Shown piece by piece: positions 2,204 to 14,431 of a stretch of DNA of 20,000 bases. How positions within the stretch are numbered: the stretch's first letter is position 1; each line of letters begins with the position of its first letter. The position numbers were made by a program, and so were the translations under genes. Source of the stretch: an uncultured virus (IMG/VR IMGVR_UViG_3300044977_000112). Lineage: Duplodnaviria; Heunggongvirae; Uroviricota; Caudoviricetes. The notes beneath the pieces were generated by a model. The model was not told the DNA's origin. It did not search any database and saw only the letters and a program-made list of their open reading frames with translations. The stretch is from the IMG/VR virus record IMGVR_UViG_3300044977_000112. The stretch is one strand, 5' to 3'.

Positions 2204-3540
2204 CAAGTCCTTGTCTCAAAACTGATGGCACTTGGCGGAAAGGATGCGTTGACCCCAATGGAGCAATACCACCAATTCCGGGGAAATCCAGACCGGCTTG
2301 TAAAAAGTTTGGCAAGCCGACGGGTAAGACAGAAACGTGCCAGACATGTCGGGGTAAAGTGAACTTGAAAATTTTCGAGTGTTCGGAGTTTGAATCGTGT
2401 ACTCCGGAAACAAAGCTTCCTGGTCATGCGTGCTGCAAAGGCTGCACGAAATATGAGCCTGTGGAGAAGCCATTTCGCGGCATGAAGTCACCGCGAGACA
2501 AGCGCAGTACCTATCATGGTGGCATTCTGCAGGTCCACCTTACAAGAGCGTGCGACCGCTCTTGTTTCGCGTGCACACAGGGTAGCAACTTCGCTGGCAA
2601 ACCCGAGTTCATGACTCCCGACCAGGCCCGAGTAGCTTTCGATTCTCTCCAAGGCTACTTCGGAGTCATCGCCCTGTTCGGCGGCAATCCCTGCATTTCC
2701 CCGCACTTTGAGGAAATCTGCAAAATCATGCGCGGTGCTGTGCCGTGGAACCGCCGAGGCCTGTGGAGTAATCATCCGTTGGGGAAAGGGAAGATATGCC
2801 GGCAGACGTTCAATCCCGCCGTCTCGAACCTCAACGTACACGAGAGCCAAGAGGCATACAACGAATTTGCGGGGGACTGGCCAGAGAGCAAGCCCTACTT
2901 GAAAGGCCTGGATTGCGATTCCGCGCACCGGCCTCCGTTCGTTGAACTGAATCAAATGATCCCCGATGAAGCTGAACGCTGGCGACTTATTCGCGATTGC
3001 AAGATTAACGCAGAATGGTCGGCGATGATCGGCATCTTCCGCGGACAACTTCGCGGCTGGTTCTGCGAGATCGCTGGTGCGCAGTCGATGCTCCACCAGT
3101 ATGATTCAGAGATTTGTGAAAAGTGTGGAGGCAAGGGAACAACGACCGCCCAATATCACCCTGAGGGAGTAGAACCCGTTGAATATCCTTGTTGGGACTG
3201 TGCTCCAACAGGAGGATTTTATGGAAAACACGGGCCATCTGAAGGTAGAGTTTGGGGCTACCCCGACACGGGTCATCGGATCGTCTCGGGCTGGTGGAAC
3301 AAACCCATCGACGCTTTCGAGGAACAAGTGACATATCACTGTCACCGCTGCGGCATTCCACTTCCTTCGGAGAGTATACTTGCCAACGGTGGCGAGGTCG
3401 AAGTAGTTACCCTGGGCTATGAGCGTATCGCCAAACCAAAGCGACTAGGGCGGCAGGTGTTGACGCTTCTGGAACCAGCGCCTCGGCTCGGTAATCCAAA
3501 TCGAGAAGTAATTCGCTATCTCGAATCGGGCAAGCCATGA
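2200..3540 (+). CDS. Radical SAM protein with N-terminal Cys-rich domain and C-terminal auxiliary Cys motifs
   Basis: CxxxCxxC (TRACDRSCFACTQ) after a beta strand, GGNP at the GGEP position, later Cys motifs (DCKIN, WFCEIAG, HCHRCG). ATGA overlap with the upstream gene. Confidence 0.9.
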   Translation: MTSPCLKTDGTWRKGCVDPNGAIPPIPGKSRPACKKFGKPTGKTETCQTCRGKVNLKIFECSEFESCTPETKLPGHACCKGCTKYEPVEKPFRGMKSPRDKRSTYHGGILQVHLTRACDRSCFACTQGSNFAGKPEFMTPDQARVAFDSLQGYFGVIALFGGNPCISPHFEEICKIMRGAVPWNRRGLWSNHPLGKGKICRQTFNPAVSNLNVHESQEAYNEFAGDWPESKPYLKGLDCDSAHRPPFVELNQMIPDEAERWRLIRDCKINAEWSAMIGIFRGQLRGWFCEIAGAQSMLHQYDSEICEKCGGKGTTTAQYHPEGVEPVEYPCWDCAPTGGFYGKHGPSEGRVWGYPDTGHRIVSGWWNKPIDAFEEQVTYHCHRCGIPLPSESILANGGEVEVVTLGYERIAKPKRLGRQVLTLLEPAPRLGNPNREVIRYLESGKP

Positions 3541-4049
3541 CCGAAGATATCTTTGCCGGCCAATCCTACGCCAAACCGGACGAGCTGGCAAAGCTCATCG
3601 AGCTACTTCCGGCGAGCGGCTGGTTCCTGGAAATCGGCTCGGCCCACGGCGTCACTGCTTCAATGATCGCTCGAGCCCATCCAGGCTCGCGGATCGTGTC
3701 AATCGATCCCTATATCGATCCCCATCCCGAAAGGTTGGCGAACTGGAAAGCCAACCAGGTCGCGAATCAGCATCTCTGGGTTGGAGAAATCGATACATTC
3801 CACTTATTTTGTGGCCAAAAATTCGATGTGGTTTTTGTAGATGGCGATCATCGGTACGCAGGCGTAATGCGCGATCTACTTTATGCGACGATGCTGGTCA
3901 AAGAAGACGGAACGATTGCGGTCCATGATTGCGGCGATCCAGAATGGTATCAAGTTCAACAGGCATTCGACAGATTTATATCTGCTCAGCATAAATGGAA
4001 AATTGACGCAGTAGTAGGATCGTTGGCAATTTTGAGGATGGGGAAATGA
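3537..4049 (+). CDS. Class I SAM-dependent methyltransferase (Methyltransf_24-like)
   Basis: FLEIGSAHG motif I, VSIDPY, FDVVFVDGDHRYAGV and IAVHD motifs; ATGA overlaps at both ends. Confidence 0.9.
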   Translation: MTEDIFAGQSYAKPDELAKLIELLPASGWFLEIGSAHGVTASMIARAHPGSRIVSIDPYIDPHPERLANWKANQVANQHLWVGEIDTFHLFCGQKFDVVFVDGDHRYAGVMRDLLYATMLVKEDGTIAVHDCGDPEWYQVQQAFDRFISAQHKWKIDAVVGSLAILRMGK

Positions 4050-8373: not shown

Positions 8374-8412
8374 TTTTGGCGGTGGGTGAAAATTCGGGGC
8401 GGGGGTGGAAAC

Positions 8413-9075
8413 ATGAGGCTGTTGGATTTGTATTGCCGAGCCGGGGGTGCAGCCGTTGGATACAACCAAGCGGGGTTCGATGAAATTGTGGGCATCGATA
8501 TTGAGTCACAAAAAAGATATCCATTCACTTTTGTTCAGTGTGATGCTCTGGAATACGTCCGAGATCATTGGCGGGAATTTGACGCCATCCATGCCTCTCC
8601 ACCGTGTCAGGCTTATTGCGCGATGAAGGGACTCGGTAAAGGGGCCGGTAAAAATGCCCCTGATTTGGTCGGGCCAACCCGGATGCTTCTGCAAAGGACA
8701 TGCGTGCCGTGGGTAATCGAGAATGTTCCGGGGGCTCCTTTGATCAATCCAGTGATGCTATGCGGCTCAATGTTCCGCCTCGGGGTTCGCCGCCATCGGC
8801 TGTTTGAAACATCGTTTTTTATGTTGGGAATTTCGACGTGCGAACACAGACCTGGGGCTTTGGCTGTGTATGGGGATCATCCGGAAGATGCCTACATTCA
8901 TTCCAAGACAATGAAGCCGGATTCGACGAAACGGGCTCCGAATATCCAGGCTGCAAGGAAGGCGATGGGGATTGATTGGATGGACTGGAAGGATATCACT
9001 CAAGCCGTCCCGCCCGCTTTCACAAAATTCATAGGAACCCAGATGATCGATCACATACGCTTCAAGGCCGCATGA
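8413..9075 (+). CDS. DNA (cytosine-5)-methyltransferase, short phage type
   Basis: LLDLYCRAGG (motif I), HASPPCQ (catalytic PC), VIENV (motif VI), RRHRLF (motif VIII), QAVPP (motif X). Confidence 0.9.
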   Translation: MRLLDLYCRAGGAAVGYNQAGFDEIVGIDIESQKRYPFTFVQCDALEYVRDHWREFDAIHASPPCQAYCAMKGLGKGAGKNAPDLVGPTRMLLQRTCVPWVIENVPGAPLINPVMLCGSMFRLGVRRHRLFETSFFMLGISTCEHRPGALAVYGDHPEDAYIHSKTMKPDSTKRAPNIQAARKAMGIDWMDWKDITQAVPPAFTKFIGTQMIDHIRFKAA

Positions 9076-10923: not shown

Positions 10924-11160
10924 ATGTTCAAGTATTACAAGTACATCCCGACTACCGATCTAGAAGCCAAATCGTGGTTCGAGATCGACAAAACAGAAGT
11001 TCCTCCCGGAACCTACAAATACCCGGATGCGGCATATGTCAGGCTGTATTTTGGTGGTTCAGATGATGAAATTGACCCGAAAGACAAACAGCCATGCATT
11101 CTTGGGTTTGATACACTCTGGGAACCACTTATGGGCATGACCAAAAAGGTGATTTCATGA
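10924..11160 (+). CDS. Hypothetical protein (78 aa)
   Basis: Fills the gap in a coupled gene string. Confidence 0.65.
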   Translation: MFKYYKYIPTTDLEAKSWFEIDKTEVPPGTYKYPDAAYVRLYFGGSDDEIDPKDKQPCILGFDTLWEPLMGMTKKVIS

Positions 11161-11384
11161 CGAACAAAGATGCGGCCAGCGAGTGGCAGATTCGTGTTGC
11201 CGAAGAGAAAGAGGAGTTGGATCAAAAACTGGAAAGGCTTTCTCACTTTCTCAAAACAGAAGGCTACACAACGTTGAAAATGATTGACCGACAACTTCTG
11301 GAACAGCAACAACGAGTTATGAAAGAATACAGCGGCATTTTGGCATTGAGAATCGATCAATTCAAAGAAAAAGGTAAATCATGA
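11157..11384 (+). CDS. crAss001_48-like phage coiled-coil protein
   Basis: QIRVAEEKEELDQKLERLSHFL...LLEQQQRVMKEYSGILALRI matches the family pattern as I recall it. Confidence 0.8.
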   Translation: MTNKDAASEWQIRVAEEKEELDQKLERLSHFLKTEGYTTLKMIDRQLLEQQQRVMKEYSGILALRIDQFKEKGKS

Positions 11385-11984: not shown

Positions 11985-12195
11985 ACTCGACCGCATTGAA
12001 CTGGAAGGCATCGACGGCGGCCATATGACCGTTGCACCCGCCAACAGTCTCGGCGGAAATCCCGCTGCGGAATTCACGCTGAACGCCCCCGGACGCAAGA
12101 TCAAGGTTAGGTTGGCGCCGACGGACTTGGCACGTCTGGTCGAATGGGGAACGGAGTATTTGAAAGAATTTCCGCCCGCGAAAACCGTAGAATGA
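11977..12195 (+). CDS. Hypothetical protein (72 aa)
   Basis: AAGGAG RBS before ATG 11977. Confidence 0.65.
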   Translation: MPELDRIELEGIDGGHMTVAPANSLGGNPAAEFTLNAPGRKIKVRLAPTDLARLVEWGTEYLKEFPPAKTVE

Positions 12196-12497
12196 AAGAC
12201 ATGTCAACCACTGTCTACCTCCAGACCGTCGCCGATTCCTGCCGCGAGATCTTGGCGCGGCACGATGAACTTGTTGCGATGGATGCGGAACTGATAGCGA
12301 AAGCGCCGGGTGGAATTTCTCGGGCTGAGATCCTGAAAGATGAGATCGAGGACTACAAAGCCAAGATGGACTTGGCCCAAGCTCAGGCGAAGTTGGATGA
12401 AGCGACCGAGAAGGAATCCATTCCCGAGTCGCGACGGTGCAAGAACGTGTGCTCCGCGTGTCATCATGTTTGTGGGCATGACCTGGCGATAGGATGA
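12192..12497 (+). CDS. Hypothetical protein, helical with C-terminal Cys/His cluster
   Basis: ATGA overlap; RCKNVCSACHHVCGH. Confidence 0.7.
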   Translation: MKDMSTTVYLQTVADSCREILARHDELVAMDAELIAKAPGGISRAEILKDEIEDYKAKMDLAQAQAKLDEATEKESIPESRRCKNVCSACHHVCGHDLAIG

Positions 12498-12509
12498 TTT
12501 TCAAGTGTA

Positions 12510-12602
12510 CCCCCGGCACTCTCTTGACGGGAGGGAGTGACGGACGGTTCTCCTGGAGCTGTCCTCCGGGGGCTTTTCCGTCTCCCGTCAACTCCAGGGG
12601 AA
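12510..12602 (+). promoter_or_regulatory. Structured intergenic RNA: three-way junction plus alternative pairings covering the protease RBS
   Basis: Stems 12510-16/12566-72, 12517-25/12531-39 and 12542-50/12556-64. Alternative helices 12524-33/12582-91 (10 bp perfect) and 12548-58/12592-602 (11 bp, one GU). Confidence 0.65.
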
Positions 12603-12609
12603 TTTATCA

Positions 12610-13680
12610 ATGAAGCGACTGAAGTATCTGCTCGTCTTAATGGCCGCGATGATCGGCCTCACTGTGGGCACGCTACCCGAATCGGAAGCTGCACAACCGA
12701 AGAAAGTCGTGAAGCACGGCAGGGGATACAAACCCTCGACCCCAGATGCTCGCAAGCGTCTGCATGCTGGAGCCAAAGCTCGTAATGACAGCATCGTCAA
12801 GCGTCTCCCCAAAGCGACCGCTGCGAGTTTCGATTGCCGAACGGCGTTCAACAATGTGCTGCCCACAGACGATCAGGGCCAGTGCGGAGATTGCTTCGGC
12901 GTGAGTTCAGCCGACGGTGCTTCGATGGCGATGATCAAGGCCGGGATCTTGCCGAATGACACTGTTGCCGGTCGGCTGTCCTCACAATACGGACTTGACT
13001 CCGGGGCCTTCCAGGGTGGCTGTGATGGGGGCGATGAAGCCCAGGTAATCGAATATATCCACAGCACGGGATTCCCGCTCACGTCGCAGTACGGACCGTA
13101 TTCCGCGTCTCCAGGCCAATTACAGAATACGACTGGTATGACGTTCTACAAATTGGCAAGTTATGGCTACTGCACGCCGTCTCAGGAGGAGGGAATCGCG
13201 GCCGATCAGGACGTGAAGAACTGCATGGCTATGTGGGGGCCGATCAGCGTAGCCTTCGATGCCAGCGAGTGCGACAACTACGTTTGGCCCGGCACAATGA
13301 CCGGCAACGGTCGTAATGTTGATCACGCCGTCCTCAACATCGGCTGGGACGACAACCATGACAACGGGGACGGGACAAAAGGCGCTTGGCTTGGAATGAA
13401 TCAGTGGGGACAGGCCAGCACAACGACGGTAAGCTTCCAGAGTCAGCCGTGGGGCGGACCGAATGGGACATTCTGGATCAAGTACGGCAGTGATTCGTGG
13501 AACACGGAGTCTATTTGGATGTCTGGAGCCCCGATCCCGAGTCCCGGGCCAACGCCACCAGGACCAGTACCTCCTACGCCGGTGCCTCCTACTCCCGTTC
13601 CCCCGACACCGATTCCACCAGCTCCGATTCCCTGTACCCCAAAATTTCACATTTTCGGAAGACCACATTTTAGATGCTGA
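12610..13680 (+). CDS. Secreted papain-family (C1A) cysteine peptidase with Pro-rich tail
   Basis: Signal peptide; DQGQCGDCF (oxyanion Gln, catalytic Cys), LSSQY, GCDGG, GPISVA, DHAV (His), NQWG (Asn), GTFWIKYG; PTPVP-type repeats. Confidence 0.93.
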   Translation: MKRLKYLLVLMAAMIGLTVGTLPESEAAQPKKVVKHGRGYKPSTPDARKRLHAGAKARNDSIVKRLPKATAASFDCRTAFNNVLPTDDQGQCGDCFGVSSADGASMAMIKAGILPNDTVAGRLSSQYGLDSGAFQGGCDGGDEAQVIEYIHSTGFPLTSQYGPYSASPGQLQNTTGMTFYKLASYGYCTPSQEEGIAADQDVKNCMAMWGPISVAFDASECDNYVWPGTMTGNGRNVDHAVLNIGWDDNHDNGDGTKGAWLGMNQWGQASTTTVSFQSQPWGGPNGTFWIKYGSDSWNTESIWMSGAPIPSPGPTPPGPVPPTPVPPTPVPPTPIPPAPIPCTPKFHIFGRPHFRC

Positions 13681-13737: not shown

Positions 13738-14031
13738 ATGGGTTCCGGCACACAAAACCCGCTGCTGTACACATTGCTGAAAATGGCCACAAGCGTGCAG
13801 TTGAAGCGGAAAGGTATTTCGCTTTCAGACTCGCAGGCCGCTCTCAGTCAGCTTGATGGCGGCATAATTGACGGTGTGGCGGCAGATGCAGGCGTGGCTT
13901 ATCCGGCCGAGAAAGGAGCAAGCGGCCAGATCATTGCAGCGTTACTTGCGTTTCTTGCTTCGCCCCAAGGACAAGCCTTAATGGCAGCTCTGATCCAGAT
14001 GCTGATTAGCCTGATCGCTGGCGGTGGCTGA
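13738..14031 (+). CDS. Hypothetical protein with hydrophobic C-terminal helices
   Basis: AAGGTG RBS; IIAALLAFLASPQGQALMAALIQMLISLI. Confidence 0.75.
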   Translation: MGSGTQNPLLYTLLKMATSVQLKRKGISLSDSQAALSQLDGGIIDGVAADAGVAYPAEKGASGQIIAALLAFLASPQGQALMAALIQMLISLIAGGG

Positions 14032-14303: not shown

Positions 14304-14431
14304 ATCCAACTCGCCAGAGTTGGTGGGGTGTGCGACATGCACCAAACAGCCCGTGGGGAAACCTGCGGGCTGTTTTATTCTGGTTCCTGATCTTCTTTAT
14401 CAATTGCTTCATGTCTACATTCCCTGCGTAG
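14300..14431 (+). CDS. Possible small membrane peptide (43 aa)
   Basis: GTGA overlap with the upstream stop; hydrophobic VLFWFLIFFINCF. Confidence 0.4.
   Translation: MNPTRQSWWGVRHAPNSPWGNLRAVLFWFLIFFINCFMSTFPA

Follow-up and report, generated by a model that had tools for sequence, protein, structure and literature searches.

The 112-nt leader of a papain-family cysteine peptidase gene carries a strongly folded three-way junction that is specific to the sense RNA strand, and a segment downstream of it is complementary, beyond chance, to two of the junction arms and covers the ribosome-binding site (RBS) of the peptidase. The gene lies in a 20,000-nt stretch of DNA (hereafter the window, meaning the whole of the sequence analyzed) that looks like part of a phage genome. 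When folded in silico, a structure that buries the RBS is more stable than the junction, and a similar junction occurs in one distant relative. From these observations we infer that the element may terminate transcription, refold in vivo, and have some effect on translation. The reading that we prefer, tentatively rather than with confidence, is that it acts between the two cistrons as an attenuator and insulator, and that the RBS can be sequestered in those transcripts that read through, in other words a two-state cis-regulator and not a recognized riboswitch.

Gene layout and the three-way junction

The features referred to throughout are the following.

3537-4049, 8386-9075, 11157-11384, + strand: methyltransferase-like genes and a crAss001_48-related gene
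12192..12497, + strand: upstream gene, 101 aa, no family (ORF list, sequence reading)
12498..12609, + strand: intercistronic leader of the peptidase gene, 112 nt (ORF list, sequence)
12510..12572, + strand: three-way junction (RNAfold)
12510-12516 (CCCCCGG) / 12566-12572 (CCGGGGG), + strand: stem P1, 7 bp
12517-12525/12531-12539, + strand: stem P2 (arm 2), 9 bp including 2 G-U, loop GACGG (12526-30)
12542-12551/12555-12564, + strand: stem P3 (arm 3), 10 bp including 3 G-U, loop CCU (12552-54)
12550..12572, + strand: alternative simple hairpin (CUCCUGGAG/CUCCGGGGG, 9 pairs; terminator scan)
12574..12577, + strand: short U run UUUU, one base (C12573) after P1, a weak terminator tail
12581..12591, + strand: block A' (UCUCCCGUCAA), the complement of 12524-12534 at the top of arm 2
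12592..12604, + strand: block B' (CUCCAGGGGAAUU), the complement of 12546-12558 at the top of arm 3
12610..13680, + strand: papain-family cysteine peptidase (Peptidase_C1), 356 aa (Pfam PF00112, E 1.6e-20)
13738..14031, + strand: 97-aa ORF, hydrophobic at its C-terminus, final gene in the + strand block
14344..14375, + strand: strong canonical hairpin terminator closing the block, 14 pairs, T-rich tail

Small, tightly abutting + strand genes form a long array across the window, and in this part of the block neighboring genes otherwise overlap or stand a few bases apart. Before the leader comes the last gene of a closely coupled + strand block; its start codon overlaps the stop codon of the ORF before it (ATGA; start placed at 12192), and it has no Pfam match. 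Within the leader, as read from the sequence, there is no in-frame ATG, GTG, or TTG from the stop at 12538-40 to the ATG at 12610. The N-terminus of the peptidase, judged by eye, looks like a signal peptide, and on that reading the protein may be exported. Its tail is Pro-rich, and the columns of the catalytic Cys, His, and Asn show no variation across nine relatives (alignment A2). The peptidase cassette ends the operon, before the canonical terminator at 14344-14375.

Some further observations concern the neighboring genes. The same + strand block includes two genes for DNA methyltransferase-like proteins (PF13578; PF00145 with phrog_363) and one for a small crAss001_48-related protein (PF21825). 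The 97-aa ORF that follows the peptidase has no match in Pfam or PHROG, and weakly resembles the C-terminal tail of the longer peptidase of a relative that we call L024 (L024:1177-2970; 30% identity over 74 aa, E 0.07 as a single comparison); the peptidase tail may thus be a separate gene in the window. The first 13 nt of the peptidase gene (ATGAAGCGACTGA, 12610-12622) recur with one mismatch and out of frame at 12397-12409, in the upstream gene, which may reflect chance or a recombination scar. The proteins encoded upstream of the peptidase in the window (12192-12497) and in its closest relative, L001 (139-1143), have C-x-x-C-H-like ends (CSACH/CASCH), and homology between the two is not significant (E 0.25). 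Comparison of the window with a phage collection returned no similar DNA.

When 12510-12581 is folded with RNAfold, the result is exactly the three-way junction (-40.2 kcal/mol, z -3.19, with 1 of 200 shuffles as good), at an ensemble frequency of 0.71, and a second shuffle run on the junction gave z -3.68 with 0 of 300 as good. The stems are connected by strands of 0, 2 (AC), and 1 (U) nt. The minimum free energy (MFE) of the whole leader is not unusual (z -1.0). A preliminary description, made from the sequence alone, had read stems of 7, 9, and 9 bp followed by CUUUU; the junction, the first two stem lengths, and the CUUUU are as described there, and arm 3 is corrected to 10 bp.

The reverse complement of the junction folds to -25.1 kcal/mol, with z -0.29. 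The opposite strand folds poorly because 5 of the 26 junction pairs are G-U, and the restriction of the fold to the sense strand therefore argues for RNA, the level at which the structure had been proposed to act, and against a DNA palindrome. Two inverted repeats are present in the DNA. Nevertheless, we regard an element acting at the DNA level, such as an operator, a recombination site, or a repeat, as hardly credible: besides the five G-U pairs and the difference between -40.2 kcal/mol for the sense strand and -25.1 for the other, the repeat arms do not recur in the 20-kb window above chance, and arm spacings of 48 and 27-33 bp are unsuited to a dimeric operator.

As a terminator, the element has mixed features. 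P1 consists of seven G-C pairs and is followed by C, UUUU, and CC. The tail of an intrinsic terminator is U-rich, usually with 5 or more U in 8, and the UUUU tail here is weak compared with the terminator at 14344-14375, which is this genome's ordinary example. The terminator scan flags the simpler hairpin at 12550-12572 with the tail CTTTTCCGTC. This hairpin shares its 3' strand with P1 and coexists with the pairing of block A' to arm 2 (A:A', see below). A simple unbranched hairpin is not the prevailing structure, given that the three-way junction dominates (0.71) and the unbranched conformer is found only alongside A:A'.

The element does not belong to a catalogued RNA family. At gathering thresholds, Rfam 15 matched nothing, either across the whole window or in six related loci, and in a lax Rfam scan of 12440-12660 the best E-values were 1.2-5.3 (12.5-13.3 bits against cut-offs of 35-50), in keeping with the first impression that no known riboswitch is present. 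ARAGORN found no tRNA or tmRNA.

Complementary blocks and competing folds

The sequence CTCCCGTCAA at 12582-91 pairs in 10/10 positions with TTGACGGGAG at 12524-33, and this helix (A:A') can be extended to 11 bp with one G-U (12524-34/12581-91). Likewise, CTCCAGGGGAA at 12592-602 pairs, with one G-U, with TTCTCCTGGAG at 12548-58, and this helix (B:B') can be extended to 13 bp (12546-58/12592-604). In arm 2, the target of A' comprises two stem bases, the loop, and four stem bases. B' contains a Shine-Dalgarno (SD)-like AGGGG at 12596-12600, which lies 9 nt 5' of the ATG at 12610 and is the only SD-like element before that ATG. Blocks A' and B' abut, and the order A, B, A', B' means that the helices cross, in a pseudoknot topology. 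Thus, the central claims of the preliminary description hold up: that 12582-12602 is complementary to arms 2 and 3 in abutting blocks, that the second of these covers the AGGGG of the peptidase, and that the two helices cross.

The two-block complementarity is more than chance. When the downstream 39 nt were replaced by dinucleotide shuffles, the score of the best single helix was reached in 8/1000 cases and that of the best two helices in 1/1000. As a natural control, we took 222 strong 64-nt folds from a subset of the loci collected; 2 of them reached the two-helix score of 56, and at least one of these two is one long hairpin truncated by the 64-nt scanning frame. Several CUCC/GGAG pairing registers exist in the leader (four helices were listed). 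With regard to an H-type pseudoknot, the helices do cross, with loops of no more than 5 and 3 nt, and the long helices require the tops of the arms to open; from geometric reasoning, full formation of both long helices at once looks sterically strained.

Other genes in the window have GGAG- or GGTG-type elements at a similar spacing. Those starting at 11157, 11381, and 13738 share AAAGGTGATTTC/AAAGGTAAATC directly before the ATG, a stronger SD than the AGGGG of the peptidase.

To compare the alternative structures, a 143-nt RNA (12498-12640) was folded under constraints; the energies cover nested folds only. The junction state lies at about -44.3 kcal/mol, the A:A' state, which coexists with the simple hairpin at 12550-72, at -46.1 kcal/mol, and the B:B' state, in which P2 is kept and 12546-58 pairs with 12592-604, is the MFE at -50.2 kcal/mol. 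The SD-sequestered fold is therefore, in silico, ~6 kcal/mol below the junction fold, and the blocks do compete with the junction arms, as had been suspected. Mean pair probabilities are 0.71 for B:B' and 0.14 for P3.

The order in which these folds become favorable follows the length of the transcript. At growing lengths, the junction is the MFE at the tested ends from 12572 to 12600, except at 12596, where a different fold wins (-41.0 vs. -40.9 kcal/mol), and the B:B' fold is the MFE from 12604 onward. On paper, such models would give two states: the junction, which comes early and leaves the RBS open, and a later fold that closes it. Two properties of delayed folding are seen here, in silico only: at equilibrium the SD pairs with an upstream complement, and an earlier structure holds that complement. 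The findpath barrier from the junction to the closed fold is ~18.8 kcal/mol, which is an upper bound, but large; with a barrier of ~19 kcal/mol, it could be that refolding never takes place within the lifetime of the mRNA. The energy required to open the RBS region (positions -18 to +6) in the equilibrium ensemble is 7.8 kcal/mol and is ordinary among the 24 genes of the window (range 1.4-14.3).

Leaders of related peptidase genes

Relatives of the peptidase were gathered from viral contigs by a single-protein search (6 loci) and by a profile search (392 relatives, of which the best 80 were kept), and from metagenome contigs by a protein search (7 loci). In genome contigs, a first peptidase search found none and a second found four distant loci (23-24% identity), which were left out of the comparison. 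The compared set (n = 16) consists of 15 deduplicated phage-type relatives (32-62% identity) and the window. It should be noted that the start codons of several relatives were set by eye, from signal peptides and the alignment, as were the boundaries of the element and of the downstream segment.

Long leaders are present in 6/16 cases (window 112 nt, L007 99, L008 97, L015 116, L016 158, and L024 about 207-213), and the other 10/16 have leaders of 0-54 nt. L001, the closest relative (62% identity), has a 27-nt unstructured spacer and a different upstream gene. Strongly folded elements are found in all six long leaders (z -3.7, -5.9, -2.4, -7.9, -5.8, and -6.4, in the order just given). In all of them but L016, folding is clearly stronger on the sense than on the antisense strand, and at least 4 U follow the element in the window, L007, L008, and L016, and not in L015 and L024.

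The genes that precede these leaders differ. In L007 and L015, a chagasin-type inhibitor gene (PF09394; L007:1641-1943 and L015:1040-1369, E 4e-20 and 7.5e-16, respectively) lies directly upstream of the leader, and the peptidase genes (L007:2043-3326 and L015:1486-2706) are downstream, so that inhibitor and peptidase are separated by a strongly folded 99-116-nt leader. Judged from their sequences, these are inhibitor-protease pairs carried by phages, and the peptidases appear to be without a signal peptide. The position of the inhibitor gene before the leader fits a need for less peptidase than inhibitor. In L016, TTGACA and TAATCT with a 17-nt spacer (L016:1351-1385) were noticed by eye directly ahead of the long hairpin preceding the peptidase gene; this motif was not accepted by the promoter scan, and if it is real, the hairpin would lie in a 5' leader. 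The genes upstream of the leader in L024 (L024:613-969) and L008 (L008:1165-1596) encode small proteins with one hydrophobic segment and then a charged, coiled-coil-like stretch. No family was found for them, and by sequence they could be lysis-associated.

L024, whose peptidase is 33% identical to that of the window, has a three-way junction at 1036-1101 (-42.7 kcal/mol, z -7.2), with P1 closed by CCCCGG...CCGGGG and a P2 of 8 bp with a 5-nt G-rich loop. Junction bases and flanks are identical in the two leaders: GTACCCCC precedes the junction, the central stretch reads GUGAC(G)GACGGU, with AC between P2 and P3 and GACGGU opening P3, and a single U stands before the 3' strand of P1. With a covariance model built from the window only, the L024 junction was the best non-self match (11.7 bits), with E 0.3 in 26 kb, E 0.0026 within its 230-nt leader, and ~0.04 after our multiplication by the ~15 leaders. 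In Smith-Waterman comparisons of whole leaders against shuffles, the similarity to the window was reached in 25/500 cases for L024 and in 1/500 for L008, the 3' half of whose leader aligns with the window (GGCTTTT..TCTCC..CG..TCAACTC..GGGAAT); it was not significant for L007, L015, L016, L001, L002, L005, and L006. In a structure-fitted alignment of window and L024 (A6), 13 pairs differ on both sides and 97.9% of cells are paired, and because it holds two sequences that were fitted to the structure, it shows only that the junctions are of like size. The MAFFT leader alignments A1, A3, and A4 are not structure-consistent and were for that reason excluded from the pair counts.

Searches for further copies were made at several levels of stringency. 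In 17 sources searched with a two-sequence model (R2), there was no third junction, an exact 21-mer from the leader had 0 matches in viral contigs, and one degenerate pattern scan of viral contigs returned only L024's own contig. A degenerate pattern with 14 specified bases gave at least 121 chance matches in viral contigs, of which only L024 and one unrelated locus passed a stricter regular expression, and two AT-rich matches in a further pattern scan of viral contigs were also set aside as chance. We considered GTACCCCC as a repeated promoter-like word and rejected this: it occurs once in the window and 7 times in the 66.7-kb L024 record, against 3 for a control word, and the other six L024 sites have no similar fold. 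A two-hairpin fold tried for L008 was rejected because it is 8 kcal/mol worse than the L008 MFE.

The helix test designed on the window was applied to the five other structured leaders, with 1000 shuffles each. The counts below are of shuffles that reach the score of the best helix and of the best two helices; energies (kcal/mol) are those of the closed state, in which the RBS or the block is paired, and of the element state in nested models, for four relatives.

L015: best helix 1/1000, two helices 4/1000; closed -61.8 vs. element -64.1
L007: best helix 54/1000, two helices 73/1000; closed -38.4 vs. element -49.0
L008: best helix 138/1000, two helices 43/1000; closed -30 vs. element -35
L016: best helix 535/1000, two helices 511/1000
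L024: best helix 442/1000, two helices 594/1000; closed -54 vs. element -68

In combination (Fisher), the five leaders are enriched for element-to-downstream complementarity (p 0.005 for two helices, 0.003 for the best helix), an enrichment that rests on L015 (p 0.084 when it is removed); there is no excess in L016 and L024. The form of the pairing varies. In L015, the loop of hairpin 2 and the 3' strand of hairpin 1 have as partners two abutting blocks that end 2-3 nt before the SD, and in L007, GUCUCGG in a 9-nt loop pairs with CCGAGAC between the SD and the AUG. At the position homologous to A:A' (P2 loop and 3' strand), the pairings GGCGUGGG/UCCACGCU of L008 and GUGGGGUG/CACCCCAC of L024 were reached in 154/2000 and 620/2000 cases, respectively. 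The closed state is less stable than the element state in 4/4 relatives, by 2-15 kcal/mol.

Overall, a downstream segment complementary to the upstream structure is a recurring theme, and conservation of A:A' and B:B' themselves is not significant. The preliminary description had proposed to look for covariation among leaders of homologous peptidase genes; the comparison of leaders yielded a junction of the same architecture in L024, with A:A' not significantly conserved in L008 and L024 (combined p 0.11) and B:B' absent in L024. Of the two folds, both of which would be conserved in an established case of delayed folding, the junction recurs, and in L024 only. As for the two-state regulator itself, the part of the proposal that stands is the competing RBS-closing fold, in silico, and what speaks against the regulator is the ordinary RBS opening energy, the unstructured spacer of L001, and the weak conservation of these pairings; the potentially lytic nature of the protease, also proposed there, is conjectural.

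Proposed function, alternatives, and known systems

We suggest that a sense-mRNA element at the boundary between the coupled block and the peptidase gene probably brakes the latter in two ways. The junction would form upon transcription, its GC-rich closing stem and C-UUUU acting as an insulator and as an intrinsic terminator that is weak and partial, so that some transcripts but not all would proceed to the peptidase gene; perhaps it would also stabilize the upstream message at its 3' end. In those that read through, the next 24 nt would invade the tops of arms 2 and 3, and in the stable end state arm 2 would be kept and 12546-58 would pair with 12592-604, with the RBS buried. Because the junction is, in silico, a deep kinetic trap, the RBS would be free only early, and translation would consequently be brief after synthesis, or a factor would be needed. 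An elaboration that we think unlikely would make the leader a self-contained co-transcriptional timer, in which the junction, as a conserved kinetic trap, keeps the RBS open on nascent transcripts only, until loop-primed strand invasion shuts it permanently, so that each transcript yields a fixed, small burst of secreted protease. The leader would then represent a new motif family of phage C1-peptidase cassettes, with the window and L024 homologous and L015, L007, and L008 as analogous designs.

The element, as the junction or its simpler hairpin conformer, could also be a plain intercistronic terminator or mRNA stabilizer that does no more than end or protect the upstream message and reduce read-through, with the 24-nt complementarity a by-product of CUCC-/GGAG-type tracts that regulates nothing; this is a strong rival, in our view somewhat less likely than the preferred reading. 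Such a reading would accommodate the strong structure with a U run in 4/6 structured leaders, the hairpin flagged by the scan at 12550-12572, the several CUCC/GGAG registers, the ordinary RBS opening energy, alternative pairings that are not significantly conserved, and a leader that is dispensable in 10/16 relatives. It sits less easily with shuffles that keep composition and reach the two-block score only 1/1000 times, with a branched stem and 4 U that make a poor terminator next to 14344-14375, and with L024, which has no U run and keeps an architecture and junction bases that a mere terminator would not need. In our view, strand specificity, the L024 junction without a U run, and the block complementarity argue for more than a casual terminator, whereas ordinary RBS accessibility, the leaderless L001, and weak conservation of the pairings argue against a finely tuned, indispensable switch.

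A factor-dependent riboregulator, in which the junction binds a protein of phage or host origin (or, with lower likelihood, a small ligand) that stabilizes one fold and so switches translation or termination, in the manner of riboswitches or the operators of ribosomal proteins, we judge quite improbable. Three folds within ~6 kcal/mol, a high barrier suggesting that a helper may be needed, and identity of the junction bases and flanks in window and L024 despite 33% protein identity are what such a regulator might display. However, the conservation expected of a riboswitch was not found, with two junction copies (window and L024) and 3 unpaired junction bases; a 3-nt junction leaves little room for a ligand pocket, the Rfam match is absent, and there is no candidate binding protein. 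A processing site, at which a cut by a double- or single-strand-specific host RNase uncouples the stability of the upstream and peptidase messages, as at T7-like intercistronic sites, is in our estimate more improbable again. The intercistronic position in a long co-directional block and the strong sense-strand structures at the same position in 6/16 relatives would suit it, but arms of 9-10 bp are short for RNase III, and the block complementarity would go unexplained.

If the attenuator and insulator that we prefer does have two states, it would be a case of compact, protein-free timing of expression by RNA folding in a dsDNA phage, on a mobile protease cassette. It would show how a phage can dose a potentially dangerous cysteine protease that is secreted or paired with an inhibitor, and would provide a candidate new RNA motif outside Rfam. 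If the plain reading is true, the leader is an unusually shaped intercistronic terminator of little wider interest. Cis-acting leaders with metastable and SD-sequestering folds are a well-known kind of element; the layout of junction plus invader is outside any described family, as far as Rfam and the related-topic literature extend. None of the papers listed by topic searches on phage chagasin/cysteine protease and on three-way-junction terminators concerned the leader. Because there are only two homologous copies, it is a candidate motif only.

Among known elements, purine riboswitches resemble the leader in size (~65 nt), in P1-P2-P3 topology, and in being followed by an expression platform overlapping a terminator or RBS. 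In purine aptamers the junction strands are long and conserved and the loops kiss, whereas the window junction has strands of 0, 2, and 1 nt, loops (GACGG and CCU) that are not mutually complementary, and no Rfam match. Hairpin/pseudoknot or alternative structures are found at the translation start sites of the E. coli rpsO-S15 operator and of lambda cIII. The leader is like these in that a hairpin loop may pair at the RBS and conformers would differ in ribosome access, with a balance that a protein or physical condition could shift; it differs in that it has two crossing helices of 11 and 13 bp in place of a compact H-type pseudoknot.

Intrinsic (Rho-independent) terminators, attenuators, and stabilizers occur between the genes of phage and bacterial operons, for example, before the lambda late/lysis genes. 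The window shares with them a GC-rich stem and U's between co-directional genes, upstream of a late or lysis-like gene, and would be expected, as they are, to set the ratio of upstream to downstream expression. In contrast to them, its stem is branched and followed by 4 U, L024 and L015 have no U run, and the downstream complementarity is extra.

Closer parallels to the competing folds come from mRNAs with metastable structures. Type I toxin mRNAs (hok; aapA1 of Helicobacter pylori, PMC6733600) have metastable folds that sequester the SD. As in these, the leader of a potentially harmful protein would close the RBS by alternative or transient folds; the toxin systems also involve an antisense RNA partner and 3' processing, none of which is seen in the window, and that the peptidase is harmful is assumed. 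In the maturation-gene 5' UTR of the levivirus MS2, a branched leader at equilibrium pairs the SD with an upstream complement, and a structure that forms early postpones this pairing, such that translation occurs only early (PMC4615214). MS2 is an ssRNA phage and the structure is at the 5' end of its genome, whereas the window leader lies between two genes of a dsDNA-phage-like operon and is related to that of MS2 neither in sequence nor through Rfam; the fold that forms early in the window, unlike that of MS2, is a complete three-way junction with a U run after it. The MS2 structures are backed by covariation and experiments, and those of the window leader are predicted in silico; at that level, it shows the same delayed-folding logic.
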